A stretch of 64,000 nt of DNA from contig MFPT01000019.1 in assembly GCA_001782805.1 (NCBI GenBank), positions 1,801-65,800 of the forward strand, in the 5' to 3' direction. The stretch comes from Candidatus Magasanikbacteria bacterium RIFCSPHIGHO2_01_FULL_41_23 (lineage in GTDB: Bacteria; Patescibacteriota; Patescibacteriia; Magasanikbacterales; UBA922). Position numbers and translations under genes: made by a program. The notes beneath the pieces are model-generated. The model was given only the letters and a program-made list of their open reading frames with translations. It had not been told where the DNA came from and searched no databases. Shown one piece after another: positions 2,617 through 40,130 of this stretch (positions are counted from its first letter, which is position 1; each line of letters starts with the position of its first letter).

Positions 2617-4644
2617 ATGAACGTCTCTGAACTCGCGCGACAATTAAAAATCAATACCAAAGATTTGTTGGAAATTTTGCCGCAATATGGTTTTGATATT
2701 GGTGTGCGCGCCGTGAAAATTGATGATCGCGTCGCCGAACAAATTACGCGCAAGTGGCGTTTTATTCGGCGCGATTTGGAAGAAAAACGGCGCAAAGAAC
2801 AAGAAGAAAAAAAAATAAAGGAGCGTGCGTTGCGCAAGGAAATGGGACATAGCGTTGTTTTGCCTGCGCTTATTACGGTGCGTGCTTTGGCCGAACGCAT
2901 GAATTTGCCGACGACACAAGTGATTATGGAACTAATGAAAAACGGGATTTTGGCCAATCAAAATCAGAATATAGATTTTGACACGGCCGCAATTTTGGCG
3001 GAAGAACTGGGTTTTCGCGTGGAGCGTGAAGGCGAAGAATCCGCAGTGCAAGAAAAAGAAGATACGCGCTCGCAGGGTTTGGAAGAAGCCTTGGCGCGAG
3101 GAGTGGAAGGGGGCGAGCCTCGTCCGCCCGTGATTGTGGTTATGGGTCATGTGGATCATGGCAAAACCAAATTGCTGGACACAATTCGCTCCACCAATGT
3201 TATGGGCAAAGAGGCGGGTGGCATTACGCAACATATTGGCGCGTATCAAACTATTTGGCAAGATCCCAAAACCAAAGTTGAGCGCGCGATTTCTTTTATT
3301 GATACTCCCGGTCACGAAGCTTTTTCCATGATGCGCAGTCGTGGTGCCAAAGTCGCGGATATTGCCATTTTAGTAGTGGCCGCTGATGATGGAGTCAAAC
3401 CGCAAACCGAAGAAGCAATCAATATTATTCGCGCGGCTAAATTACCGCTCGTTGTGGCTATTAATAAAATTGATAAAACTACCGCGGATATTGAACGCGT
3501 AAAAAATGAATTGTCGCAAAAAAATGTTTTGCCCGAAGATTGGGGCGGCGATGTTCCGGTGGTCGGGATTTCCGCCAAAAATAATGTGAACATTGATAAA
3601 CTTTTGGATGTGTTGCTGTTAGTGGCGGATATGAACGCGGAAAAAATTAAAGCTGATCCCAATTTGCCGCCCGCGGGAACAATTATTGAATCGCATGTGA
3701 ATAAAGGAATGGGACCAGTGGCGACGGTTTTGGTTCAGTCCGGTACTTTGCATGCCGGAGATAAGTTGGTAGTGAATAATGAAATTTACGGCAAAGTGCG
3801 CGCTATGAAAAATTATCGTGGCGATATTATTGCCAACGCCACACCATCAATGCCAGTTCAAATTATTGGTTTTAAAGTCGCGCCGGAAGTGGGCGATATT
3901 TTGGATGTTAGTAAAGCCGACACGGCGCTGGAAATTAATGTCAAACAAAAACGTTCGGATCAAACCAGCGCGGAACGTTCCACGATGTCCAATGCTCAAA
4001 CAGAAGGCGATGAAACTCCGCAAAAAACATTAAACTTAGTCATTAAAACCGATGTACTGGGTTCGCTGGAAGCGATTGTGGCCTCATTATCAAAAATAAA
4101 ACACGATGAAGTTGGCGTAAAAATTATTGGTAAGGGTTTAGGAAATATTACGGAAAATGACGTGGCCAAAGCTGAATCCGGCAGTGCGACCGTTGTTGGT
4201 TTTAATGTACGCCCGACAACAATGGCCGAAGAAATGATGCGCGATAAAAATATTCCGTTTTTGAATTACAACGTGATTTATGATTTGATTAATTGGGTTA
4301 AAGCCGAACTGGAAAAAATGTTGACCAAAGAGCATATTATTACTGAACTGGGCACGATGAGTATACTCGCGGTTTTTCGTCGCGACAAACAATATTCCAT
4401 TGTTGGTGGCCGAGTTATGAACGGTAAAGTCGTTAAAGGAGAATCAGCACGCGTAAAACGCGATGGACTGTTGATTGCCACGGCGCAAATAATGTCGGTT
4501 AAATTGGGTCAGCAAGAATTAAAAGATGCCAGTGAAGGCACGGAATGCGGTATCCAAATCGGTACTAAGGAAAAAATTGAAATTGGTGATACGCTGGAAA
4601 TTTTTCATGAAGAAATTAAAGTACGGAAGATTATTTTTGGTTAA
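2617..4644 (+). CDS. infB: Translation initiation factor IF-2
   Basis: IF2_N motif MNVSELARQLKINTKDLLEILPQYGF and the GTPase G1 motif VVMGHVDHGKTKLLD. The ORF-track start at 2512 is probably an upstream extension; the ATG at 2617 fits the IF2 N-terminus. Confidence 0.9.
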   Translation: MNVSELARQLKINTKDLLEILPQYGFDIGVRAVKIDDRVAEQITRKWRFIRRDLEEKRRKEQEEKKIKERALRKEMGHSVVLPALITVRALAERMNLPTTQVIMELMKNGILANQNQNIDFDTAAILAEELGFRVEREGEESAVQEKEDTRSQGLEEALARGVEGGEPRPPVIVVMGHVDHGKTKLLDTIRSTNVMGKEAGGITQHIGAYQTIWQDPKTKVERAISFIDTPGHEAFSMMRSRGAKVADIAILVVAADDGVKPQTEEAINIIRAAKLPLVVAINKIDKTTADIERVKNELSQKNVLPEDWGGDVPVVGISAKNNVNIDKLLDVLLLVADMNAEKIKADPNLPPAGTIIESHVNKGMGPVATVLVQSGTLHAGDKLVVNNEIYGKVRAMKNYRGDIIANATPSMPVQIIGFKVAPEVGDILDVSKADTALEINVKQKRSDQTSAERSTMSNAQTEGDETPQKTLNLVIKTDVLGSLEAIVASLSKIKHDEVGVKIIGKGLGNITENDVAKAESGSATVVGFNVRPTTMAEEMMRDKNIPFLNYNVIYDLINWVKAELEKMLTKEHIITELGTMSILAVFRRDKQYSIVGGRVMNGKVVKGESARVKRDGLLIATAQIMSVKLGQQELKDASEGTECGIQIGTKEKIEIGDTLEIFHEEIKVRKIIFG

Positions 4645-4713
4645 AATTTTGTTCGTTACATTTTTAAGCAAACTTTGTTTTTTTAAGTTGTAAAAACTCC
4701 CTTTCCTAAGACT

Positions 4714-4830
4714 TAAGCAAACTTCGCGAGATCTTTTTCTCGACCACTCGACCCTTCGACAAGCTCAGGGTAAACAGGCTCGGGCATCGAGAAAAAAATC
4801 ATCGCTCCAGTTTGCTTCAAAGATTAATTG
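4714..4830. repeat. Intergenic copy of GC-rich short repeat (core 4752-4775 CCCTTCGACAAGCTCAGGGTAAAC) flanked by imperfect ~30-bp inverted repeats
   Basis: The core matches copies at 8757-8782, 35222-35244, 18423-18447 (reverse complement) and the variant at 34203-34243. Flanking arms AAGCAAACT...TCTTTTTCTCGA / TCGAGAAAAAAA...AGTTTGCTT. Confidence 0.8.
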
Positions 4831-4856
4831 GATGTTGGACTGTTGTATTGGGGGGA

Positions 4857-5010
4857 ATTTCAGTAGTAGATAATTTTGTTTTCAGTAATGTGCATGAGCT
4901 TTCTTACCACTTACTTGGTTAGAGTAGATGAGATGTCAATAAGGATAGAGACTAGGAGAGTATGAGAATAGCGAGTTTTACTGAAAAGAAAATTATCTAC
5001 TACTGAAATT
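4857..5010. repeat. ~150-bp palindromic element (33-bp inverted-repeat arms AATTTCAGTAGTAGATAATTTTGTTTTCAGTAA / TTACTGAAAAGAAAATTATCTACTACTGAAATT), homologous to the element at 29871-30020
   Basis: Arms are reverse complements with 1 mismatch. Internal right-end motif GCGAGTTTTACTGAAAA is shared with the second copy. Confidence 0.85.
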
Positions 5011-5051
5011 ACTTTAAGTTATTAATTAGAAATTTATTTTAACATTACAGT

Positions 5052-5378
5052 ATGTCCGAAATTATTTTAACCGATACCAATTTTAAAGCAGAAGTTTTGG
5101 AATCCGCGATTCCGGTTTTGGTGGATTTTTGGGCGCCATGGTGCGGCCCGTGTCAAATGATGGGACCGATTATTGCCGAATTGGCAGGAGAATGGGATGC
5201 TACGAAAATTAAAATCGGGAAAATGAATGTTGATGATAACACAATCGTGCCAGGAAATTATCGCGTTATGAGCATTCCCACTTTTATACTTTTTAAAAAT
5301 GGCCAAGTTGTTGAAACATTGGTTGGAGGAATGCCCAAACAAAAATTACAAGCGGCCGTGGAAAAACATTTGGTATAA
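5052..5378 (+). CDS. trxA: Thioredoxin
   Basis: WCGPC active site, 108 aa, thioredoxin-fold sequence. Confidence 0.9.
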   Translation: MSEIILTDTNFKAEVLESAIPVLVDFWAPWCGPCQMMGPIIAELAGEWDATKIKIGKMNVDDNTIVPGNYRVMSIPTFILFKNGQVVETLVGGMPKQKLQAAVEKHLV

Positions 5379-8241: not shown

Positions 8242-11133
8242 ATGAATAAATATAATCCCCAAGAAATTGAATTAAAATGGCAAAAATTTTGGGAAGAAAA
8301 TAAAACGTTTGCGGTTACTGAAGATTCGACCAAAGAAAAATTTTACGGCCTGATTGAGTTTCCGTATCCGAGTGGCGCGGGTTTGCATGTGGGGCATCCG
8401 CGGTCGTACACGGCCATGGACGTGATTACGCGGCAAAAACGCATGGAAGGCAAAAATGTTTTGTTCCCGATTGGGTTTGATTCATTTGGTTTGCCGACGG
8501 AAAATTTTGCCATTAAAACCGGTCGGCCGCCTGCGGAAATTACGGCTGAAAATATTACCACGTTTACGCGTCAGCTCAAGTCGCTGGGTTTTGGATTTGA
8601 CTGGAATCGCGCGGTGACCACGAGCGAGCCGGAATATTACAAATGGACGCAGTGGATTTTTTTGCAATTGTATAAACATGGTTTGGCGTACAAAGCGAAC
8701 CAGCCAATCAATTGGTGTCCGAAAGATAAAATTGGTTTGGCGAATGAAGAAGTAGTGACCCATTCGACAAGCTCAGGGCAAGTCAGTTGTTGCGAACGGT
8801 GCGGCAGCACAGTAGAAAAACGGAACAAAGAACAATGGATGCTGGCGATTACCAAATACGCGGACAAATTGTTGGAAGGCCTGAATGAAGTGGATTATAT
8901 TTCGCGCGCCAAAGTGCAACAAGAAAATTGGATTGGAAAAAGTGAGGGCGCGGAAATTAATTTTGCCTTGAATGTTCCGAGACAAGATTTAGGGAAACAT
9001 AGTGTAACGGTTTTTACCACGCGACCCGATACTATTTTTGGCGCGTCGTTTTTGGCAATTTCAGCCGAGCTGGCGCAAAAATGGATAGATGTAGGCTGGC
9101 AGGCGAGTGAGGAGGTAAAAAAATACATTGTGGAAACTTTGCAGGGTCGGACGACCGCGGTGGCGCGCGAAGATATTGAGAAAACCGGTGTTGACTCGGG
9201 AATTATCGCAATCAATCCGGTCAATAATGAATCAATTCCTGTTTGGATTGTGAATTATGTGTTGGGTGATGTGGGCACTGGTGCAATTATGGCTGTGCCG
9301 GCGCACGATGAACGAGACTTTGAGTTTGCACAGAAATATAATTTGCCAACAAAAGAAGTGGTAATCAAACAATTAGGCGAGAGAGTGGATGGTAGTGAAG
9401 TTAGAAATACTGCGCGGGGGATTTGTGTTCGAGATGGGAAATTATTAATAACCCGCAATAAGAAAATGGGTGAATATCTTTTGGTAGGTGGAGGAATTGA
9501 TAATAAAGAAAGTCCAACCGGTGCATTATTGAGGGAAATAAAAGAAGAAACTGGTTATTGTAATATAAAAATTTCTTCATATCTTGGCACTGTTGAACAT
9601 AATTATTTTCATACCCAACATAAAAAAAATTTACATGCGTTGGTGGCGGGCTTCGTATTTGAATTAGAAAATGAAGAAACAGTACCCCGCGTTGAAAATG
9701 AAATTCAAAAAGCTAATATTCTGTGGTTGCCGGTTGCCGAAGCGATTGAAAAATTTGAAAATAGTCCGTCATTTTGTCGGGAAGTTGAATTTATTGAACG
9801 CTATTTGCAAAAAAAAGGCCTGCCGTTTACTGAAAATGGTGTGGCGTATAATTCTGATTTCTTAAATGAACTGCCGACTCCCGAAGCCAAAGAAAAAATG
9901 ATTCAATGGCTTGAAGAAAAAAGAGTCGGCAAACGTAAAAAAAATTACAAACTCCGCGACTGGGTTTTTTCGCGCCAGCGATATTGGGGCGAACCGATTC
10001 CATTGGTTTTTTGTGAGAATTGTAAAGGTTGGATCCCGCTTCCTGAAGATCAGCTTCCTTTAAAGCTACCACACGTTGAAAAATATTTGCCGACGGACAC
10101 GGGCGAATCACCGCTCGCGCCAATGACGGATTGGGTAAATACGACTTGTCCGCAGTGTGGCGGTCCAGCGCGGCGGGAAACTGATACAATGCCGAATTGG
10201 GCTGGATCAAGTTGGTATTGGTTACGCTATTGTGATCCGCATAATGTTGAGCAATTGGCGTCAAAAGAAAAGTTAAATTATTGGCAACCAGTGGATTGGT
10301 ACAACGGCGGCATGGAGCACACGGTTTTGCATTTGTTGTATTCGCGTTTTTGGAATCAATTTTTGTACGACATTGGCGTGGTGCCCACGCGCGAGCCGTA
10401 CAAAAAACGGACGAGTCACGGTATGATTTTGGCGAGTGATGGTCAAAAAATGAGTAAAAGTTTGGGCAATGTGGTGAATCCAGATGAAATGGTCGAGCAG
10501 TTCGGTGCCGACGCCCTGCGCGTATACATTTTATTTATGGGGCCGTTTGACCAGGCCGTGGCGTGGGATACAAATGGACTTGTTGGTGTGCGGAGATTTT
10601 TGGAAAGAGTGTGGAATTTGCAGGAAAAAATTTACGATAACATCCCAGCAATTGTCGGGCAAATAACAGATAACAAAATTCAGACTGTTTTGCATCAAAC
10701 CATTAAGAAGATTACTGAGGATATTGCCGCGATGCGATTCAATACTGCAATTGCGAAATTGATGGAGTTGAGTAATGAAATGGGTACGCGGGAAAAAATT
10801 GCGCGCGAAGATTATCATATATTTATAAAATTACTCGCTCCATTCGCGCCGCATATTACCGAGGAATTGTGGAATCTATTTGGCACCGGCGATTCAGTCG
10901 CATATGCGCCGTGGCCACAATATGATTCTGAATTAATCATAGAAGCCGAAATAATCATTGTAGTACAAGTCAACGGTAAAGTCCGCGATCAATTGACTGT
11001 CTCGCCGGAAATTAGTGAAGAAGAAATAAAACAAATGGCGTTGTCGTCCGAGAAAGTGATGAAGTGGTTAGAAGGGAAAGAGCCGAAGAAGGTGATTTAT
11101 GTTAAGGGAAAGTTGGTGAGTGTGGTGGTATAA
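8242..11133 (+). CDS. leuS: Leucyl-tRNA synthetase with embedded Nudix hydrolase domain and a short in-frame repeat insertion
   Basis: HVGHPRSY (HIGH), Zn motif CCERCGS, editing-domain motifs TTRPDTIFGA and AHDERDFEFAQKY, KMSKS. A perfect Nudix box GGGIDNKESPTGALLREIKEETGY lies at 9487-9558, inside a ~150-aa insert. The THSTSSGQVS insert is encoded by the repeat core at 8757-8782. Confidence 0.9.
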   Translation: MNKYNPQEIELKWQKFWEENKTFAVTEDSTKEKFYGLIEFPYPSGAGLHVGHPRSYTAMDVITRQKRMEGKNVLFPIGFDSFGLPTENFAIKTGRPPAEITAENITTFTRQLKSLGFGFDWNRAVTTSEPEYYKWTQWIFLQLYKHGLAYKANQPINWCPKDKIGLANEEVVTHSTSSGQVSCCERCGSTVEKRNKEQWMLAITKYADKLLEGLNEVDYISRAKVQQENWIGKSEGAEINFALNVPRQDLGKHSVTVFTTRPDTIFGASFLAISAELAQKWIDVGWQASEEVKKYIVETLQGRTTAVAREDIEKTGVDSGIIAINPVNNESIPVWIVNYVLGDVGTGAIMAVPAHDERDFEFAQKYNLPTKEVVIKQLGERVDGSEVRNTARGICVRDGKLLITRNKKMGEYLLVGGGIDNKESPTGALLREIKEETGYCNIKISSYLGTVEHNYFHTQHKKNLHALVAGFVFELENEETVPRVENEIQKANILWLPVAEAIEKFENSPSFCREVEFIERYLQKKGLPFTENGVAYNSDFLNELPTPEAKEKMIQWLEEKRVGKRKKNYKLRDWVFSRQRYWGEPIPLVFCENCKGWIPLPEDQLPLKLPHVEKYLPTDTGESPLAPMTDWVNTTCPQCGGPARRETDTMPNWAGSSWYWLRYCDPHNVEQLASKEKLNYWQPVDWYNGGMEHTVLHLLYSRFWNQFLYDIGVVPTREPYKKRTSHGMILASDGQKMSKSLGNVVNPDEMVEQFGADALRVYILFMGPFDQAVAWDTNGLVGVRRFLERVWNLQEKIYDNIPAIVGQITDNKIQTVLHQTIKKITEDIAAMRFNTAIAKLMELSNEMGTREKIAREDYHIFIKLLAPFAPHITEELWNLFGTGDSVAYAPWPQYDSELIIEAEIIIVVQVNGKVRDQLTVSPEISEEEIKQMALSSEKVMKWLEGKEPKKVIYVKGKLVSVVV

Positions 11134-14517: not shown

Positions 14518-15428
14518 ATTGTATGAAAAAAATTGTATTTATTGTAATTTTAGGGATCGTGGTTTTAATTTCAAGTTATTTCGCTTGGCTTTATTTTTCC
14601 AATCCAAGCACAAGCCCGTTGAATCCCACGTTAAAAGTTAATTTTTTGGATGTGGGACAGGGTGATGCCACACTGATTATTTTTCCCGATGGCCAAGAAA
14701 TGCTTGTGGACTGTGGTCGCGACGCAATTATTTTGGCTGCGCTCGCGCGCGTTCGCCATTGGCAGGATCGAACATTGGATTATTTGGTAGTCACGCATCC
14801 GGATGCGGATCATTATGGCGGATGTATTGATGTGTTAAAACAATATACGGTAAAACATATTTATTTTAATGGTTTTGCCAAAGAAAATAGCCAACTTTTG
14901 CAAACATTTCACCAAACTGTTCTCGATGAAGAGAATATTGGTGCGGATTTTATTATTGTTTCCAGCTCCAAAGAATTATTTATTGCCAGCACGAGTATAC
15001 GATTTTTATATCCTGATCATTCCATTGTTCAAAATCCACGTGTGCCGGGAGAATCAAGTATTGAAAGCAATAATACCTCGATCGTCATGAAAATTTCTTA
15101 TGGCAAACTCAGTGTTCTTCTGACCGGTGACATGGAAATGCCGTTGGAAAATTATTTGATTAAAAAATATGGATCAATTTTAAATGTTGAAGTTTTAAAA
15201 ATCGGACATCATGGCAGTAAATCATCGTCCGGTGAAGAATTTTTAGGCCGCGTTATGCCCCAATACTGCGTTATTTCATCCGGCCAAAATAATTCTTATG
15301 GTCATCCGGCATTACGAGTTCTCAAACGTTTGGCACGAAGTGGATGCCAAATTTTGCGAACCGATTCATTAGGTGATATACTGGCTATAATTACATTGGA
15401 AAAAATCACCATCCATGCGCAAAAATAA
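14511..15428 (+). CDS. ComEC-type metallo-beta-lactamase domain protein with own N-terminal TM anchor
   Basis: VNFLDVGQGDATLIIFPDGQEMLVDCG, HPDADHYGG, LKIGHHGSKSSS. Separate ORF in a different frame, with a 7-nt overlap with the upstream comEC part. Confidence 0.75.
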   Translation: MVNCMKKIVFIVILGIVVLISSYFAWLYFSNPSTSPLNPTLKVNFLDVGQGDATLIIFPDGQEMLVDCGRDAIILAALARVRHWQDRTLDYLVVTHPDADHYGGCIDVLKQYTVKHIYFNGFAKENSQLLQTFHQTVLDEENIGADFIIVSSSKELFIASTSIRFLYPDHSIVQNPRVPGESSIESNNTSIVMKISYGKLSVLLTGDMEMPLENYLIKKYGSILNVEVLKIGHHGSKSSSGEEFLGRVMPQYCVISSGQNNSYGHPALRVLKRLARSGCQILRTDSLGDILAIITLEKITIHAQK

Positions 15429-16854
15429 TCTACTGTGGATTTTAGTCATTGGATTTATTTTTATCCCCCTCAACTTCGTTCAGGGCGCTTTTACTTTTGT
15501 GGTAAATCAAGGAATCCGTTTGTCCAATCCCAAAGCAGTTGAAGGGGAAACAGTCAAAATCTATACCGTCGTTGCCAATAATGATTTTACTACTCTTTCC
15601 GGTGAAATCACTTTTTATAACAATAATGTGGCCATTGCCAAAGTGCCTTTGGCAAAATTAGCGTTTGAAGATGCTCGACAAATCGCGGCGGAATTTGTTT
15701 TGCCGGCCGGTGAATTAGCCTTGACCGCTGAATTGACCAGTGTTACAGCAGTTAAGAAAAACGGTGAAACAGTTACGATTCCGGACAATGAAGTTAAAAG
15801 CGGATCTGCGCCAACGGTATTTACCATTGATGGTGATAATGATCGTGACCATTTTGGGGATAGTGTTGATCCTGACGATGATAATGATGGTGTTCCTGAT
15901 ACCAAAGAGTTGGAGGCGGGAACTGATCCTAAAAAAAGTGATACTGATGCCGATGGTTTGACTGATAAAATTGAATTGGAAAAAAAGACCGATCCATTGA
16001 AAGCCGATTCGGATAATGATGGCGTGTCAGATTCCGCTGATATTTTTCCAATGAATAAATCTGAAGTCAAAGACAGTGATGGCGATAGTGTTGGCGATAA
16101 TGCTGATACTGACGATGACAACGATGATCTTTTGGACGCTGATGAAATTGCTTTTGGCAGTGATCCTTTTAAAAAAGATACAGACGGTGATGGCGTCAAT
16201 GATTTTGAAGAAAAACGTTTAGGCGGAAATCCCAAATTGGCTGACTCTGACCATGATGGTTTGACTGATGCCGAAGAAGTTAAACGTGGCACTAATTTGG
16301 CCAGTGTTGATACTGATGCTGATGGTTTGTCGGATAAAACGGAAATTGAAGGAAAAACCGATCCCAAAAATCCGGATTCTGACAGTGATGGACTCAGTGA
16401 CAGTGACGAAATTAAAGTCGGAACTGATCCATTAAAAAAAGATACGGACAATGATGGTATTGGAGACAAAGAAGATGTCTTTCCGCTTGATCCGAAAGAA
16501 AATATTGATACCGATGATGATACTATGGGAAATAATACTGATACTGACGATGATAATGATAAAATTATTGACAGTGACGAAATTAAAGTCGGAACTGATC
16601 CATTAAAAAAAGATACGGACAATGATGGCTTAACCGACTATGAAGAAAAAGTCAAAGGAACTGATGCTAAAACCGCTGATACTGATCAGGATGGAAAAAA
16701 TGATTCTGAAGATCGGACGCCATTATCCGCGAGTCGTTTTTCCAATGTACCGACGAATGCGTTATTATATGGCGCGCTCGCGATTTCCGGTTTATGTTTT
16801 GTGGCGGCGAGCGCCGCCTATTGGCGTCGTCGAAAATTAAGCGCCAGAAATTAA
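15415..16854 (+). CDS. Secreted Ca-binding protein with thrombospondin type-3-like repeats and C-terminal TM/basic anchor
   Basis: Signal peptide. At least 12 DxDxDGxxD-type repeats. C-terminal hydrophobic helix followed by RRRKLSARN. Internal 59-bp exact direct repeat (16399-16457 and 16571-16629). Confidence 0.65.
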   Translation: MRKNNLLWILVIGFIFIPLNFVQGAFTFVVNQGIRLSNPKAVEGETVKIYTVVANNDFTTLSGEITFYNNNVAIAKVPLAKLAFEDARQIAAEFVLPAGELALTAELTSVTAVKKNGETVTIPDNEVKSGSAPTVFTIDGDNDRDHFGDSVDPDDDNDGVPDTKELEAGTDPKKSDTDADGLTDKIELEKKTDPLKADSDNDGVSDSADIFPMNKSEVKDSDGDSVGDNADTDDDNDDLLDADEIAFGSDPFKKDTDGDGVNDFEEKRLGGNPKLADSDHDGLTDAEEVKRGTNLASVDTDADGLSDKTEIEGKTDPKNPDSDSDGLSDSDEIKVGTDPLKKDTDNDGIGDKEDVFPLDPKENIDTDDDTMGNNTDTDDDNDKIIDSDEIKVGTDPLKKDTDNDGLTDYEEKVKGTDAKTADTDQDGKNDSEDRTPLSASRFSNVPTNALLYGALAISGLCFVAASAAYWRRRKLSARN

Positions 16855-16858
16855 TTAT

Positions 16859-17971
16859 ATGTCATTGTTTGGCAACAAAATTGAATCATATTTGGGCGTT
16901 GATATTGGCGCTGATGGTGTTAAGTTGGTGGAATTGCGTCAAACTAAAGGCCGACCACAATTATGGACATATGGTATAGTCGAAGAACATATTTCCATTC
17001 ATCCGGAGAACGGTGAACGGTCTCTGGCTGAACTTGGATCTAAAAAATCAGTAGTTATACCGCCGGTCAATTCTGAATTTTCATTGGAGCGAGCCGATCA
17101 TATTGCTGTCTTGCTTTCTGGACTCATAAAACAAGCGCGCGTATCCGGTCGTCGCGCCGCGTCAAGTTTGCCTGTATCACATATCTTTCATACCATTATA
17201 AATTTGCCCAAAGTTCCGGAAAAAGAAATTGATGGCATGGTTCAGGCGGAAATAGCCAAGGTTTTGCCACTTCCGAACGATCAAATGCAAATTGTCTATC
17301 AAACGGTGCCACTTTCCGAAACATTGGAGAAAAATTATATTCGTCTTTTGGTTACGGCCGCGCCCAAAAATATGATTGAGTTCTATACGCGGATTTTTCA
17401 AAAAGCCGGTTTGCAATTGTATGAATTGGAAACCGAAGCTTTTGCTTTGTCTCGCGCACTCGTTGGTCGCGATGATTCCTTGACCATGATCGTGGATATT
17501 GGCGCGGAGCGAACTAATTTTTCTTTGATTGACAAAGGATTGCCTATGACGCAACGAAGTTTGAATTTGGGTGGAGCGATTCTTGATACTATTATTGCCG
17601 ATCGATTGGGAATAACTCCGGGAGAAGCGCAATCAATTAAAAGAGATATTTCTTCAAATTCGAAAACCGTTATTTCCACTGAGCCGTTTATTCGTTTTTT
17701 GGAACCACTCGCGAAAGAAATTCAGTATCATTTTGATTTGTATTTAAGTCAAACCGGCAATGAAGGTCGTAAGCCGGAAAAAATTGTCTTGACGGGCGGC
17801 GCGGCTTTTTTCCCACCAATTTTAGAATATCTCAAGAGCCAATTTCCAATGCGAGTGTTTATCGGCGATCCATGGGCTCGTGTTTTGTATCAGGACGGAT
17901 TAAAACCGATTTTGAATGAAATCGCTCCACGCATGGCCGTAGCGCTTGGTTTGGCATTGCGTCATTTTTAG
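16859..17971 (+). CDS. pilM: Type IV pilus assembly ATPase-like protein PilM
   Basis: Actin-like fold start YLGVDIGADGVKLVEL. Size and context next to the pilin and prepilin peptidase. Confidence 0.7.
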   Translation: MSLFGNKIESYLGVDIGADGVKLVELRQTKGRPQLWTYGIVEEHISIHPENGERSLAELGSKKSVVIPPVNSEFSLERADHIAVLLSGLIKQARVSGRRAASSLPVSHIFHTIINLPKVPEKEIDGMVQAEIAKVLPLPNDQMQIVYQTVPLSETLEKNYIRLLVTAAPKNMIEFYTRIFQKAGLQLYELETEAFALSRALVGRDDSLTMIVDIGAERTNFSLIDKGLPMTQRSLNLGGAILDTIIADRLGITPGEAQSIKRDISSNSKTVISTEPFIRFLEPLAKEIQYHFDLYLSQTGNEGRKPEKIVLTGGAAFFPPILEYLKSQFPMRVFIGDPWARVLYQDGLKPILNEIAPRMAVALGLALRHF

Positions 17972-18403: not shown

Positions 18404-18874
18404 ATGAATATGAATAAAAAAGGACTTGCCCTGAGTTCGTCGAAGGGATTTACGCTCATTGAACTGTTGGTGGTCATTGCCATTATCGCCTTGCTTTCCA
18501 CTTTGGCGGTAATCGCTTTGGGATCAGCGCGCAAAAAAGCCAATGATGCTAAACGTTTGTCTGATATGACTCAGATTCGTTTTGCTTTGGAAAGTTATTT
18601 TACCAAACGCAATACATATCCAACTACTTTGCCGGCCGGTGTTGTTTTGGGAGTGGGAAACGCGACTTGTCTCAATACCACAGGTTTTGCTGTCGCTGGT
18701 TGTGCCGAACCGCTTATGGCCATTATTCCGCGTGATCCGGGCGCAGGCACTTATGTTTACTCTTCAAATAACGGGAAAACATATAAAATTTTGGCTTCAC
18801 TGGAAGCCGGCACTGATACGTTAAAACCGGGAGCAATTGCCGTTGATCCGTTTACCATTAAAAATGGACAATAA
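18404..18874 (+). CDS. Type IV pilin / pseudopilin (prepilin N-terminal cleavage/methylation motif)
   Basis: KGFTLIELLVVIAIIALL (G/FTLIE class III signal). The leader region is encoded by the reverse-complement repeat core at 18423-18447. Confidence 0.85.
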   Translation: MNMNKKGLALSSSKGFTLIELLVVIAIIALLSTLAVIALGSARKKANDAKRLSDMTQIRFALESYFTKRNTYPTTLPAGVVLGVGNATCLNTTGFAVAGCAEPLMAIIPRDPGAGTYVYSSNNGKTYKILASLEAGTDTLKPGAIAVDPFTIKNGQ

Positions 18875-18891
18875 TCCAAACGATAATTGTT

Positions 18892-19638
18892 TTGCCTATG
18901 CTGATTTTTTCCGGTTTGTTTTTTTTCATTCTTGGATCAATCACTGCTTCAGCACTCTTAACTTGGTTTTGGCGAGCAAAACAGGGAAAAAAATGGACTG
19001 TAGGTAGATCACTTTGTGATTACTGCTCCGCGCGTTTGCCATTAGTTTCCCTAATTCCAATTTTGGGAAAATTATTAATTCCTCGTTGTCCTCACTGTAA
19101 AAATTTCGGACCATGGTATTCATTTGTCGCAGAACTTTCTGTAGGCTTTGCTTGGGTTTTGGTTTGGTATTATTCATTAGTTTCAAACAATTGGGTAACT
19201 CTCGCGCTTCAATTGATTATAGTAACGGCTTTAATTATTGTCACCGTTTTTGATTTTTATTGGCAAGAAATTCCTTTTTATCTATTGGTTATTTTGCTTA
19301 TTTTCACGCTTATTTTTATTTTATTAAATCCGGATTCGGATATATCATTGGCATCACGTTTGGTGGGAGCAGTGGCCAGTGCGGGTTTTTTTGCCTGGCA
19401 ATATGTTTTATCGCGCGGTCGCTGGATTGGTAGCGCGGATATTTGGCTTGGCGCGTTTTTGGGTTTTTTATTTGGCTGGAATACGATTGTATTGGTCTTG
19501 GCTGCTGGTTATGGCTTGGCGGCAGTCGGATCAATTATTCAACTTTTTATGATGCGCTCAAAAATTCCTCGGACTATTCCTTTGGGAGGTTTTTTGTCGT
19601 TATCCGGTTTAATTTTTTTTCTCAATAAAATAATATGA
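18892..19638 (+). CDS. pilD: Prepilin leader peptidase / N-methyltransferase (A24 family)
   Basis: N-terminal CxxC...CxxC zinc motif, multi-TM, a DFYWQEIP-like aspartate motif. Genomic context. Confidence 0.75.
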   Translation: MPMLIFSGLFFFILGSITASALLTWFWRAKQGKKWTVGRSLCDYCSARLPLVSLIPILGKLLIPRCPHCKNFGPWYSFVAELSVGFAWVLVWYYSLVSNNWVTLALQLIIVTALIIVTVFDFYWQEIPFYLLVILLIFTLIFILLNPDSDISLASRLVGAVASAGFFAWQYVLSRGRWIGSADIWLGAFLGFLFGWNTIVLVLAAGYGLAAVGSIIQLFMMRSKIPRTIPLGGFLSLSGLIFFLNKII

Positions 19639-36969: not shown

Positions 36970-39900
36970 ATGAATACATTAAACCAATCGCAAAAAGAGG
37001 CCATTGAATACATTTCCAACCCTCTCCTCATCGTCGCCGGCGCGGGCACGGGAAAAACAACGGTGATCACGGAAAAAATCGCACATCTTATTTCTTTCGG
37101 CTTGGCAAAACCCGAGGAAATTTTGGCGCTGACGTTTACGGATAAAGCCGCGAACGAATTACTGGAACGCGTGGATGCGCGTTTGGAATTGGGCTATGTG
37201 GATCTGCAAGTTTCCACATTTCATAAATTTTGCGAACGACTACTCCAAGAATACGCGCTGGACATTGGATTGCCACGCCAATTTAAATTAATTACGGAAA
37301 CTGATGCCTGGCTTTTATTGCGTGATAAAATATATGAACTTGGTTTGGGTTATTATCGTCCGCTTGGCAATCCGGTCAAATATATTTCTGATTTATTGCG
37401 TCATTTTTCCAAATGTAAAGATGAGTTAATTACTCCTGCGGATTATTTGGCGCACGCGGAAAGTGTGGCGCATGAAACAGGCAGTGAAACTGGAGATGAA
37501 AAATCGCGTTTGACTGAACTCGCGAACGCGTATCACGCGTATAATCAATTGATTTTACAAGCCAGTGGATTGGATTTTGGTGATTTGATTTTTTATAGCG
37601 TGCAATTATTGCGCACGCGTCCGGAAATTTTGCAGAAAGTTAATAAGCAATATAAATATATTTTGGTGGATGAATTTCAAGATGTGAATTGGGCGCAATA
37701 TCAATTGGTGAAAGAACTCGCACGCGGTGGCCAGCTAACAGTGGTTGGTGACGACGATCAATCAATTTACGCGTTTCGCGGCGCCAGTGTTTCCAATATC
37801 TTGCGTTTTAAAGATGATTATCCCACGGCCAAAAGCATTGTGTTGAATGCCAATTATCGCTCGCGTCTGGAAATTTTGGATGTCGCGTATAGGTTAATTC
37901 AAAATAATAATCCGGATCGGTTGGAAGTAAAATTAGGTTTGGATAAAAAATTAATCGCGTCCGCGGAGTTTGGTGTTTTGCAAAAAAATCAAACAGTTGT
38001 AACTTATTTGAAAGCGGAGACAATAGACGCGGAAGTGCGTGGCGTAATTCAAGAAATTATCAGCTTAAAACAAAATAATCCGGACACGGTTTGGGATGAT
38101 TTCGCGATTTTGGCGCGCGCGAATAATCATCTGGATCCGTTTATTCGCGGACTGGAAGTGGCGGGAATTTCGTATGAATTTTTATCCGCGGCCGGGCTAT
38201 ATCGTCAACCGATTGTGTTGGACGCGTTTAGTTTTTTTAAAATTGTGCATCAAACGCAAGAAAATTCCGCGTTATTTAGATTGTTGAATTTACCATGTTT
38301 GAATTTTGATCCGCATGACACGCAAAAATTACTGGCCGTGGCCAAGAAAAAAAGTTTGTCGTATTTTGAAGCTTTGGCTCTGGCGCCGCAATGGGGATTG
38401 ACTTCTGATGGAATAAAGATTTGCGCAAAATTGCATGGATTATTATCTGCGGCCGTTGGTAAAAGCAATACGGATAAACCATCAAATCTCCTTTACTCTT
38501 TTTTGGAAGAATCAGGTTATTTGCAATTTTTAGCACATAAAGAAAATGAGGGTGATCGGACGATTATTCGCCAAATTTATCAGCTTCAACAATTTTTGGA
38601 AACAGTGACGCGATTTGAAGAAACTGTTCCCGATCCGCACGTTGCTCATTTTGTGGAATATCTGAATACGATCTTGGAATCAGGCGATGAAGGAGGATTG
38701 TATCAACCGACTGATACGCCGGATTCGGTGAATGTTTTGAGCGCGCATGGCGCCAAAGGTTTGGAATTTAAATATGTGTTTGTGGTCAACATGGTGGAAG
38801 AACGATTTCCGACGCGTCGTCGTGGAACTGGTTTGGAAATTCCCGAAGAACTTATTCATGAACATGTGCCCGAAGGAGATTATCATCTGGAAGAAGAAAG
38901 ACGTTTGTTTTATGTAGCGACTACGCGCGCCAAAGAGCGTTTATATTTTTCCAGCGCGGAAAATTATGGTGGCGTGCGCGCTAAAAAAGTGTCGCGATTT
39001 TTGGTGGAAGCGGGCGTTGTGGAAGAAACTCCTAAAAAAGAAAAACCTGTCGTGAGTTTGTCTCGCAGTGAGCTTGTCGAATTGTCGAGCCAATCAGAAC
39101 CGAAAAAATCAGTTACTGATTTTGCCCCGCCAATTATGAGGCCGGCAAAAGAAAATCCCGTAGTTTACGAATTACCCAAAGCCTTTTCTTTTTCCCAAAT
39201 AAAATCATACCAAACCTGTCCGTACCAATATAAGTTGGCGCATATTTTAAAATTACCCACGAAGAGCTCGTTTAATTTTAGTTTTGGCCAAAGTATGCAT
39301 GCGACTTTGCAAGATTTTTATACCAAAGTGCAGACGATGAATCGCGCTAAACAAGAATCTTTATTTTCCCTGCCATTGGTCTCGGCCGCAATCATGTCGG
39401 CTGACAGCGTAAAAGTACCAACACTCGCGGAATTATATAAAATGTATGACGCGCATTGGATTCCGGATTGGTATGAAAATAAAAAACAACGCGCGGAATA
39501 TTATGCCAAAGGAAAAGATATTTTGAAAAAGTTTTACGCGGCCGAAGATGGACGCTGGACAATTCCCGTATCCTTGGAAGGCTGGTTTAAAATTAAAGTG
39601 GGAAATTATTTGGTGCATGGTCGCATTGATCGCGTGGATCAAGCTTCCGATGGAACGCTCCATATTATTGATTACAAAACCGGCCAAGCAAAAGAAACAC
39701 TGACGACCGAAGACAAAGAACAATTATTGATTTACCAAATCGCGGCCGAAACTTTACCTGAATATCGCCAGATTGGTAAAACTGGACAGCTGACTTTTTA
39801 TTATTTAAATGATATTTTGAAAACCTCTTTTCTCGGTGATCCGGAAGATTTGGAAAAAATAAAAGGAAAAATAACTGCGACAATTGACCAAATTTATGCG

Positions 39901-39981
39901 GGAAATTTTACGGCCACACCGAGTCAGTTTATTTGCAAACATTGTGATTTTCGGGATATTTGCGAATTTAGAGTTGGGTAA
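36970..39981 (+). CDS. UvrD/PcrA-type SF1 helicase fused to C-terminal PD-(D/E)xK nuclease with Cas4/AddB-like Cys cluster
   Basis: Walker A AGAGTGKTT, DEFQDVN, helicase motifs. C-terminal nuclease motif HGRIDRVDQ...IIDYKTG, and Cys residues at SYQTCPY ... CKHCDFRDIC. The ORF-track start at 36910 is probably extended. Confidence 0.8.
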   Translation: MNTLNQSQKEAIEYISNPLLIVAGAGTGKTTVITEKIAHLISFGLAKPEEILALTFTDKAANELLERVDARLELGYVDLQVSTFHKFCERLLQEYALDIGLPRQFKLITETDAWLLLRDKIYELGLGYYRPLGNPVKYISDLLRHFSKCKDELITPADYLAHAESVAHETGSETGDEKSRLTELANAYHAYNQLILQASGLDFGDLIFYSVQLLRTRPEILQKVNKQYKYILVDEFQDVNWAQYQLVKELARGGQLTVVGDDDQSIYAFRGASVSNILRFKDDYPTAKSIVLNANYRSRLEILDVAYRLIQNNNPDRLEVKLGLDKKLIASAEFGVLQKNQTVVTYLKAETIDAEVRGVIQEIISLKQNNPDTVWDDFAILARANNHLDPFIRGLEVAGISYEFLSAAGLYRQPIVLDAFSFFKIVHQTQENSALFRLLNLPCLNFDPHDTQKLLAVAKKKSLSYFEALALAPQWGLTSDGIKICAKLHGLLSAAVGKSNTDKPSNLLYSFLEESGYLQFLAHKENEGDRTIIRQIYQLQQFLETVTRFEETVPDPHVAHFVEYLNTILESGDEGGLYQPTDTPDSVNVLSAHGAKGLEFKYVFVVNMVEERFPTRRRGTGLEIPEELIHEHVPEGDYHLEEERRLFYVATTRAKERLYFSSAENYGGVRAKKVSRFLVEAGVVEETPKKEKPVVSLSRSELVELSSQSEPKKSVTDFAPPIMRPAKENPVVYELPKAFSFSQIKSYQTCPYQYKLAHILKLPTKSSFNFSFGQSMHATLQDFYTKVQTMNRAKQESLFSLPLVSAAIMSADSVKVPTLAELYKMYDAHWIPDWYENKKQRAEYYAKGKDILKKFYAAEDGRWTIPVSLEGWFKIKVGNYLVHGRIDRVDQASDGTLHIIDYKTGQAKETLTTEDKEQLLIYQIAAETLPEYRQIGKTGQLTFYYLNDILKTSFLGDPEDLEKIKGKITATIDQIYAGNFTATPSQFICKHCDFRDICEFRVG

Positions 39982-40130
39982 AATTTTAAATATATAAAAA
40001 TATCTCGCACCAAAACTCGTCCGTCCTTCAGTCTGGTTTGCGAATATAGCACTTATTATCCTTAGCTGGCTCATACTGAAGGCGGACTCAAACATTGGTG
40101 CTCTATATTTTTATATATTTAAAATTTTAC
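39981..40130. repeat. ~150-bp palindromic intergenic element (24-bp perfect AT-only arms AAAATTTTAAATATATAAAAATAT plus nested inner palindrome GTCCGTCCTTCAGT/ACTGAAGGCGGAC)
   Basis: Read directly. The arms flank the helicase stop codon and reach to ~18 nt before the next gene. Confidence 0.85.

Follow-up and report, generated by a model that had tools for sequence, protein, structure and literature searches.

The Rickettsia palindromic elements (RPEs), reportedly described by Ogata et al. in 2000, are said to measure about 100-150 bp and to be restricted to Rickettsia and its relatives, and the small dispersed repeats SDR1-8 of the Nostocaceae, attributed to Elhai et al. in 2008, are reportedly 21-27 nucleotides (nt) long and associated with tandem heptamer repeats. 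Insertion sequences of the IS200/IS605 family move as single strands by hairpin-dependent 'peel and paste', with no target-site duplication and no terminal inverted repeats; they are at least several hundred bp long, have two different end hairpins and sit next to a defined target of 4-5 nt. For the SDRs of the Nostocaceae, one source gives a length of about 20 bp (PMC2884548), another a precise insertion of SDR5 between nucleotides 3 and 4 of HIP1 (PMC4390886), and a passage in a third names Nostocaceae as the only group from which they have been reported (PMC5861425). REP sequences, in the summary of one account, are species-specific in sequence, essentially extragenic and marked by a conserved GTAG or CGTC head, and are linked to RAYT transposases (PMC3116915). 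Here we analyzed a stretch of 64,000 nt from a Candidatus Magasanikbacteria genome (Candidate Phyla Radiation, CPR/Patescibacteria), called the window below, in which the leader of a type IV prepilin gene contains 24 nt (18424-18447) matching a dispersed hairpin repeat of 23-24 nt. In our assessment these 24 nt are probably a slightly decayed copy of that repeat, inserted in frame and tolerated as an essentially neutral passenger.

An inserted repeat in the pilin leader

The prepilin open reading frame (ORF) at 18404-18874 opens with MNMNKKGLALSSSKG and continues with the mature N-terminus FTLIELLVV. Prepilins that are methylated at the N-terminus have Gly at −1, Phe or Met at +1 and Glu at +5, followed by a hydrophobic helix, and the pilin conforms to this class III signal peptide motif with KG followed by FTLIELLVVIAIIALL (Gly −1, Phe +1, Glu +5, hydrophobic helix). 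A cognate A24 peptidase and pilus assembly genes lie nearby, and the gene order PilM, response regulator, pilin, A24 peptidase and P-type ATPase is shared by the window with loci L001 and L002. The pilin protein (P0001) matches a RIFCSPHIGHO2_12 Magasanikbacteria entry with 100% identity and is found on 18 contigs from several sources.

The majority of 2758 pilin homologues open with MNKKG followed by FTLIELLVVIAII. Comparing leaders among the best 120 of them, we found the short form MNKKG/FTLIE (the slash marks the cleavage site) or a close variant of it in about 100, while an additional octapeptide at this site was present only in P0001, P0005 and P0006, the leader in the window reading MNMNKKG-LALSSSKG/FTLIE. 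On the DNA level, the 25-mer GACTTGCCCTGAGTTCGTCGAAGGG (18423-18447, plus strand) encodes G-LALSSSKG right ahead of FTLIE. An initial annotation of the window had taken this 25-mer for the reverse complement of a repeat core, and this is borne out by identity at 22 of 25 positions with the reverse complement of 8760-8784; allowing up to 3 mismatches to the 25-mer repeat, the window holds 2 matches compared with 0.00 expected from 100 dinucleotide shuffles.

The site in the window reads AAAAAAGGA(CTTGCCCTGAGTTCGTCGAAGGGA)TTTACG, with the insert in parentheses, and the syntenic loci L002 and L003 have the empty site AAAAAAGG(C/T)TT(C/T), i.e. ATGAAYAAAAAAGG(Y)TTYAC, the window pilin being exactly 24 nt longer than these orthologous sites. 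Because the length of the insert is a multiple of three and its frame is free of stop codons, it is read through as LALSSSKG, and because sequence inspection revealed no in-frame ATG, GTG or TTG between the insert and the G/F site, it is necessarily translated. Its end, AAG GG, supplies the Lys-Gly that now precedes Phe +1, with the ancestral KKG displaced upstream. The element had been proposed to encode the pilin leader peptide; it does encode LALSSSKG before FTLIE, but not the whole leader, as the eight codons were added to a pre-existing MNKKG. Likewise, the annotated ALSSSKG ahead of the cleavage site was recovered, with the refinement that the final Gly of the octapeptide is itself the −1 residue. 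The odd long leader is an insertion of repeat DNA that rebuilds the peptidase site and no new kind of signal peptide, and cleavage at G/F is predicted to be retained despite the insert, given the preserved K-G/F-T-L-I-E. As a separate feature of the same leader, the gene start (18404-18415) carries a tandem duplication, ATGAAT ATGAAT, giving MNMNKKG versus MNKKG in orthologues.

Scored against the family consensus CCCTTCGACAAGCTCAGGGCAAGC, with 20 block shuffles as control, the window contains five copies at 2, 2, 3, 4 and 6 mismatches (Table 1), with fewer than 0.1 expected; the shuffles yielded no match at up to 5 mismatches and 0.05 per window at exactly 6. In every coding case, comparison with homologues shows the copy as inserted or as replacing other sequence. 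In leucyl-tRNA synthetase (LeuRS), the window reads EEVV-THSTSSGQVS-CCERCG, with THSTSSGQVS in place of the usual D/N-G (net +8 aa) and, in the DNA, GAT GGT replaced by ACC CAT TCG ACA AGC TCA GGG CAA GTC AGT. Among the 111 LeuRS homologues with a readable NWCP...CERCG segment, 108 have EEVV(D/N/G)G(C/K)CERCG and only P0123 and P0125 have this insert in common with the window, the extension in P0197 being unrelated. In the GTPase BipA, the window has VIIKE-ILSTSSGQVIKV-EPFEE where relatives and solved structures have a 6-residue loop IDGxKx (net +6 aa). In P0327, an unrelated BipA homologue, this loop has independently received a canonical copy, KDPSTSSGQAEPFEE, which points to selection for permissive sites. 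The helicase-nuclease copy is located in the linker between the UvrD_C and PD-(D/E)XK domains. Translation of the element on either strand, also suggested by the initial annotation, was thus found in the window, with HSTSSGQV (LeuRS) and LSTSSGQV (BipA) from one strand versus LALSSSKG (pilin) and SRSELVEL (helicase-nuclease) from the other. The remaining, intergenic copy forms the apex of a long imperfect hairpin (about 4712-4820), and the fold of 4690-4840 has −43.5 kcal/mol (z = −3.7).

Table 1. Coordinates of the repeat copies, the pilin locus and related features outside the window
Feature	Sequence	Position	Strand	Remarks
Type IV prepilin/pseudopilin gene	window	18404-18874	+	156 aa; Pfam N_methyl PF07963, E=3.5e-8
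Pilin leader MNMNKKGLALSSSKG	window	18404-18448	+	predicted cleavage between G15 and F16
Hairpin-repeat copy in pilin leader	window	18424-18447	−	3 mismatches to consensus; minus-strand reading CCCTTCGACGAACTCAGGGCAAGT
Pilin copy, stem CCC	window	18429-18431	+	
Pilin copy, loop TGAGTTCGTCGAA	window	18432-18444	+	
Pilin copy, stem GGG	window	18445-18447	+	
A24-family prepilin peptidase	window	18892-19638	+	directly downstream of pilin; Pfam A24_N_bact, Peptidase_A24
PilM	window	16859-17971		
Intergenic copy CCCTTCGACAAGCTCAGGGTAAAC	window	4752-4775	+	2 mismatches; downstream of infB
Leucyl-tRNA synthetase copy (ORF 8242-11133)	window	8760-8783	+	2 mismatches; zinc-knuckle loop
TypA/BipA GTPase copy (ORF 34027-35874)	window	35220-35243	+	4 mismatches
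UvrD/AddA-type helicase-nuclease copy (ORF 36910-39981)	window	39061-39084	−	6 mismatches, degenerate; encodes SRSELVEL
Altered pilin-leader copy, sister lineage	L140	754-810		
Altered pilin-leader copy, sister lineage	L139	392-425		
Acido-Lenti-1 motif bearing the element	L034	6668-6737		
Acido-Lenti-1 motif bearing the element	L034	6875-6944		

Some of the sites occupied by the repeat have further peculiarities. A NUDIX hydrolase domain is inserted after the editing domain of the LeuRS (aa 389-504; Pfam E=8.6e-17), the orthologue on L001 (1314 aa) has an alpha/beta-hydrolase domain instead, and the LeuRS of this lineage seems to accept whole-domain insertions. The spacer between infB and the thioredoxin gene (4645-5051, 407 nt), which contains both the copy at 4752 and a long-hairpin repeat, is a local insertion hotspot; the same IF-2/thioredoxin spacer measures 12 nt in L127 (7452-7464) and holds a 248-aa ORF in L126. 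Long intergenic hairpins at 4856-5010 and 29868-30023 are homologous to each other, with near-perfect arms of 33-36 nt and a spacer of about 85 nt (fold of 4840-5051: −61.5 kcal/mol, z = −6.4), and a third at 39978-40130 has a similar geometry and an unrelated sequence. None of these three hairpins matched an Rfam family, and they could be MITE-like (miniature inverted-repeat transposable) elements or structured RNA.

A 36-nt inverted pair (13436-13471/15456-15491), with 31 of 36 positions complementary and too similar for chance, is located in a ComEC ORF and in the signal-peptide region of a TSP3-repeat protein. Its ends, CCCTTCGAC...TCAGG, resemble the hairpin element and its middle differs; we rejected it as a further pair of element copies because comparison with the L001 and L002 orthologues shows no clean indel. 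The TSP3 repeats (bacterial thrombospondin type-3, calcium-binding) belong to ORF 15415-16854 just upstream of pilM, in which they are encoded by tandem repeats at the DNA level (15841-16704) with periods from about 66 to 237 nt. Scanning of the window for tRNA and tmRNA genes returned none.

The hairpin family and its spread across phyla

The family consensus, CCCTTCGACAAGCTCAGGGCAAG(C/T), can be written as CCC-TTCGACAAGCTCA-GGG-CAAG(C/T), with a loop of 13 nt. Across all loci examined, the triplets around the 13-mer TTCGACAAGCTCA were CCC/GGG in 160 cases, GGC/GCC in 6, TCC/GGA in 2 and TGC/GCA in 2, with CGG/CCG (2), CAC/GTG (2) and GTC/GAC (1) as further complementary combinations. A metagenome scan excluding the CC/GG stem (pattern DCTTCGACAAGCTCAGH) yielded 133 copies, in which stem pairs 2 and 3 were Watson-Crick in 93% and 92% (chance 33% and 25%) and the fourth pair in 52%. 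For 117 distinct sequences and four stem pairs, 85.9% of cells were paired versus 63.3% after shuffling (0 of 500 shuffles reached the observed value), and sliding the partners lowered pairing to 19-37%; 135 stem cells were changed on both sides, with a covariation score of 0.613 versus 0.189. Compensatory changes of the kind expected for a structured hairpin are thus present, and together with the pairing they indicate that what is conserved is a hairpin whose 13-nt loop is invariant and whose stem of 3-4 bp varies, followed by a short 3' tail. Several stem and tail subfamilies exist, e.g. GGGC..GCCCGAA, ATGC..GCATGAC and TCAC..GTGACCG. At the gathering threshold, the whole window gave no Rfam match.

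Scanning one genome per GTDB species for the exact 23-mer CCCTTCGACAAGCTCAGGGCAAG returned at least 120 stretches from at least 17 phyla, with unrelated flanks that differ between loci. Among the matches listed are Pseudomonadota (alpha, beta and 'delta'), Acidobacteriota, Chloroflexota, Planctomycetota, Lentisphaerota, Bacteroidota, Cyanobacteriota, Deinococcota, Spirochaetota, Elusimicrobiota, Calditrichota, Omnitrophota, Latescibacterota, Methylomirabilota, Margulisiibacteriota, Saccharibacteria and many other CPR groups, and they include the cultured isolates Sphingopyxis granuli, Chakrabartia, Citromicrobium and Microcoleus. Finished plasmids or chromids of Sphingobium, Novosphingobium, Moraxella osloensis and Gloeothece PCC 7822 carry the element without annotation, and it is absent from 5,426 complete genomes of E. 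coli. These finished isolate replicons, together with diverged orthologous copies from independent samples, rule out an assembly artefact, which is also disfavoured by the 18 contigs of several sources that encode P0001. A phage origin was likewise rejected. Viral contigs gave 11 exact matches in 2.9 million, the sole recurring phage match was of 20 nt in one Pseudomonas phage lineage, and other partial matches to phage genomes were few and marginal (E about 0.9).

The mode of insertion can be read from copies that interrupt regular sequence. Removal of the 23-mer restored perfect heptamer periodicity in a CAACTGT array of Microcoleus (L061; computed) and, by inspection, in a GGGAACA array of Gloeothece (L141) and a GGATAAA array of a Bacteroidia metagenome-assembled genome (MAG; L064), indicating that no target site was duplicated and no target bases were lost. 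The Rfam motif Acido-Lenti-1 in L034 carries the element in the terminal loop of its hairpin 1, as an insertion of 25 nt, and the composite still passes the gathering score. Flanking inverted repeats or stems of at least 6 bp were found at 7 of 129 copies compared with 0.7 expected, an enrichment that is real and concerns a minority only. Heptamer arrays and hairpin loops or tips thus suggest that the target DNA is often of a kind that extrudes single strands. The base following the 23-mer is C in 92 of the 129 copies, giving the canonical 24-mer, and a search of the flanks for a target-site motif found only a weak A at −1 (44% of copies) and C at +1. Tandem arrays of the element itself occur in L021 (1683-1753), L050 (4719-4817) and L006/L019, with a period of 24 nt inside a 902-codon ORF (DPSTSSGQ repeated) or of 38 nt with a constant spacer, and one Pseudomonadota MAG has partial internal duplications (CCCTTCGA-CCCTTCGA..., CAAGCTCAGGG-CAAGC...).

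At low-GC loci, 26 of 56 copies lie in stretches that run for 200 codons or more without a stop. In 24 of these 26 the core strand is read as sense, making the pilin orientation the rare one, and 16 use the Ser/Thr/Gly-rich PSTSSGQ frame; one of the six frames of the element contains a stop codon (TGA). The peptides PSTSSGQA, PFDKLRAS, LRQAQGK, LALSLSKG and CPELVEG are one DNA element in translation, occurring in thousands of predicted proteins and spurious ORFs, and when unrecognised they create false similarity between unrelated proteins and inflate families of 'hypothetical proteins'. Coding copies also show where essential proteins, e.g. LeuRS and BipA, have permissive loops. The family is unusually small and widespread. 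A literature search with the loop, the core and the diagnostic peptides returned no relevant paper, which is not proof of novelty, and no description was found in the literature or Rfam as searched, SDR1-8 being known to us by description only.

Decay of the pilin copy and competing explanations

By our own count, the pilin copy has 3 mismatches to the consensus in the window, 8 in L004 (P0006) and 11 in L001 (P0005). In sister lineages it is truncated (L139/P0004, leader MNKKK-FAPS-G) or broken by a nested 15-nt perfect palindrome, GAGTCCCGTCGGGAC (L140/P0002, leader MKKWFTPSESRRDESRG), the leader site evolving there by indels of 3n nt. Residues of the insert vary between orthologues (LALSSSKG, LGLNSSKG, MASNSSKG, FAPSG) and K/R-G/FTLIE is constant, as expected of a neutral segment in a leader destined for removal. 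Judged from the sequences, such decay suggests that the coding copies are probably neutral passengers.

The repeat copy in the prepilin leader has the ancestral MNKKG on one side and FTLIE, the mature N-terminus, on the other. We propose that the G/FTLIE site for the adjacent A24 peptidase would have been kept, the extra residues would be removed together with the leader, and the copy would now be eroding through substitutions and 3n indels. Many insertions may have taken place, with damaging ones purged by selection, and this would fit the permissive sites occupied in the LeuRS zinc-knuckle loop, the BipA surface loop and the helicase-nuclease linker. With low confidence, the family could spread in a non-autonomous, structure-dependent manner, with the folded single strand either recognised at its loop by an enzyme acting in trans or copied when templates are switched at stalled forks, and it may insert cleanly, without target-site duplication, into DNA prone to single-strandedness such as hairpin tips and tandem repeats. 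The pilin case is then probably an ordinary and neutral insertion that preserves the peptidase site, with the family as the interesting part.

Several observations weigh against a simple history of insertion and decay. In a neighbour-joining tree of mature pilins, P0001 has the insert and P0002 and P0004 have remnants of it, P0005/P0006 have it separately, and P0003, P0007 and P0011, which lie between these groups, are without it. Despite this patchy tree, all pilin copies carry the derived AGT/AAT-TCN instead of the consensus AGC-TTG, including a synonymous change, which argues for a single origin of the pilin copies. Similarly, the LeuRS insert with its odd flanks T..VS appears in three separated branches. 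The copies in the window, in L127 and in P0125 have their flanks and a C-to-A change in common; neither L126, which is the closest relative, nor P0122, P0124 or P0126 has the insert, and four genes agree in placing the window nearer to L126 than L127. To account for the pilin and LeuRS patterns, one has to assume precise losses on several occasions, lateral transfer of short stretches of sequence, or re-insertion. In addition, the net length change is uneven (24 nt in pilin and LeuRS, 18 nt in BipA, 23 nt in tandem arrays), and all-against-all BLAST of 2,992 ORFs within 2 kb of copies at about 240 loci found no mobilising enzyme, the recurrent ORF families being housekeeping only, e.g. sensor kinases and ABC transporters. 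Finally, the identity across phyla is poorly explained by ordinary vertical selfish DNA and could reflect a conserved function instead.

A further-reaching reading, which we advance tentatively as a minority possibility, takes the pilin insert as the footprint of an undescribed class of ultra-small mobile DNA that is active or was so recently. Its unit would be a hairpin of 23-24 nt whose loop, TTCGACAAGCTCA, is the same in at least 17 phyla, and copies would enter the tips of hairpins, tandem repeats and the loops of proteins with no duplication of the target; the 13-nt loop would be read by universal replication or repair machinery or by an unrecognised, widely shared enzyme, possibly with repeated entry and exit at the same sites. 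Such repeated entry and exit would explain the patchy LeuRS and pilin patterns. A unit of 23 nt that shows cross-phylum identity, inserts cleanly and has a selected hairpin calls into question the lower bound usually set on the size of mobile DNA, and it raises the question of what reads the 13-nt loop in Patescibacteria, Acidobacteriota, Cyanobacteriota and Sphingomonadales alike.

It is unlikely that the hairpin acts instead as a functional cis-element, read via its loop as RNA or single-stranded DNA, that regulates the translation or stability of the pilin mRNA or joins the pilin, LeuRS, BipA and helicase genes in a regulon. An invariant 13-nt loop with covarying stems across phyla is the signature of a selected structure, and the pilin copy, located 21-44 nt downstream of the first ATG where structure could affect initiation, still folds in isolation into a 4-bp CCCU/AGGG hairpin. 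However, the closing pair is broken in the LeuRS (CCA..GGG) and BipA (ACT..GGA) copies, two positions of the loop are changed in the pilin copy, and its orthologues are truncated or differ from the consensus at 8-11 positions. Moreover, local folds of the coding copies are no more stable than shuffles (z from −0.06 to +0.76), copies within the window are in mixed orientation, and the same sites are empty in the closest relatives. The alternative offered in the initial annotation, a recombination or regulatory target, is kept for the family, because of the hairpin covariation, and is improbable for the pilin copy, because of its decaying orthologues.

We give little credence to the view that a longer leader is adaptive in prepilin targeting or processing kinetics, with the repeat merely serving as raw material. 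Extended leaders do occur at the same position elsewhere (e.g. P0022, P0025, P0048 and P0100) and Lys-Gly is kept in all insert-bearing copies, but the inserted residues differ freely between orthologues, and within the family the leader can have anything from 4 to 29 residues, without pattern. More doubtful still is a recombination target for pilin variation or gene conversion, by which pilin 5' ends would be exchanged between loci or lineages. The patchiness of the insert in the pilin and LeuRS trees, together with the derived changes that its copies share, would fit lateral exchange of short segments, and ComEC and type IV pilus genes make DNA uptake possible; by contrast, neither silent pilin cassettes nor other prepilin N-termini are present in the window, the element also resides in unrelated housekeeping genes and intergenic hairpins of many phyla, and 24 nt is too short for efficient homologous recombination. 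The AAGGG part of the match does code for the Lys-Gly that prepilin leaders conserve. Nevertheless, the idea that the match arose by chance, or by convergence of an ordinary leader peptide, is refuted by the absence of any match at up to 3 mismatches in 100 shuffles, by the five copies in the window, by the 24-nt insertion relative to empty sites and by the lack of the other 19 nt of the insert in about 100 homologous leaders.

Comparison with known repeat systems

Acido-Lenti-1 (RF01687; Weinberg et al. 2010, PMC2864571) is represented by the pair in L034, which are members of the motif (39.0 bits versus a gathering score of 37). The consensus loop of Acido-Lenti-1 is about 4 nt, and the hairpin element is a 25-nt insertion in that loop and not the motif itself. 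The composite of Acido-Lenti-1 and element recurs in the Acidobacteria loci L008, L053 and L059. In E-value mode, Rfam searches of nine loci plus window positions 4640-5060 returned only Acido-Lenti-1 in L034, in addition to miRNA and CRISPR-DR noise.

Like REPs and REPINs, the hairpin element consists of short interspersed hairpins that often form inverted pairs, as in the alphaproteobacterial loci L007, L025, L031 and L040, and a REP-like model of spread, with a single-strand hairpin recognised by an HUH-Y1 enzyme, would be plausible. Unlike REPs, its loop is conserved rather than a head, and copies lie inside genes. A REP/REPIN-RAYT system was rejected, as no RAYT or recurrent transposase-like family was found within 2 kb of copies and no head was conserved in the flanks. 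The absence of target duplication and terminal inverted repeats, the folded hairpin and the association with DNA prone to single-strandedness are reminiscent of IS200/IS605, but the element differs in its size of 23-24 nt and in that no target motif was found.

The comparison with Rickettsia palindromic elements, drawn in the initial annotation, holds as an analogy because all coding copies were inserted into, or replaced part of, the sequence seen in homologues. Both are palindromic and dispersed, lie in frame within genes where several frames and orientations are translated, occupy permissive surface regions and also occur in non-coding DNA, and this in-frame behaviour in varied frames and orientations is displayed by the pilin, LeuRS, BipA and helicase copies. 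Membership in that family was rejected, since RPEs are about 100-150 bp long and belong to Rickettsia, whereas the hairpin element measures 23-24 nt, has an invariant 13-nt loop, resides here in a CPR host and is found in at least 17 phyla.

The likeness to SDRs, drawn from their description and not from SDR1-8 sequences, lies in the size class, apparent mobility and precise insertion into conserved sequence. The insertions of a clean 23 nt in tandem arrays and of 24 nt in the pilin gene fall within the reported SDR range of 21-27 nt, and the heptamer arrays that host the element (CAACTGT in L061, GGGAACA in L141 and GGATAAA in L064) have a reported counterpart in the heptamer repeats of SDRs. 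The hairpin element differs from SDRs in spanning phyla beyond Nostocaceae and in combining a covarying stem with an invariant loop. In behaviour, its closest analogues among described systems are RPEs and the cyanobacterial SDRs of Elhai.

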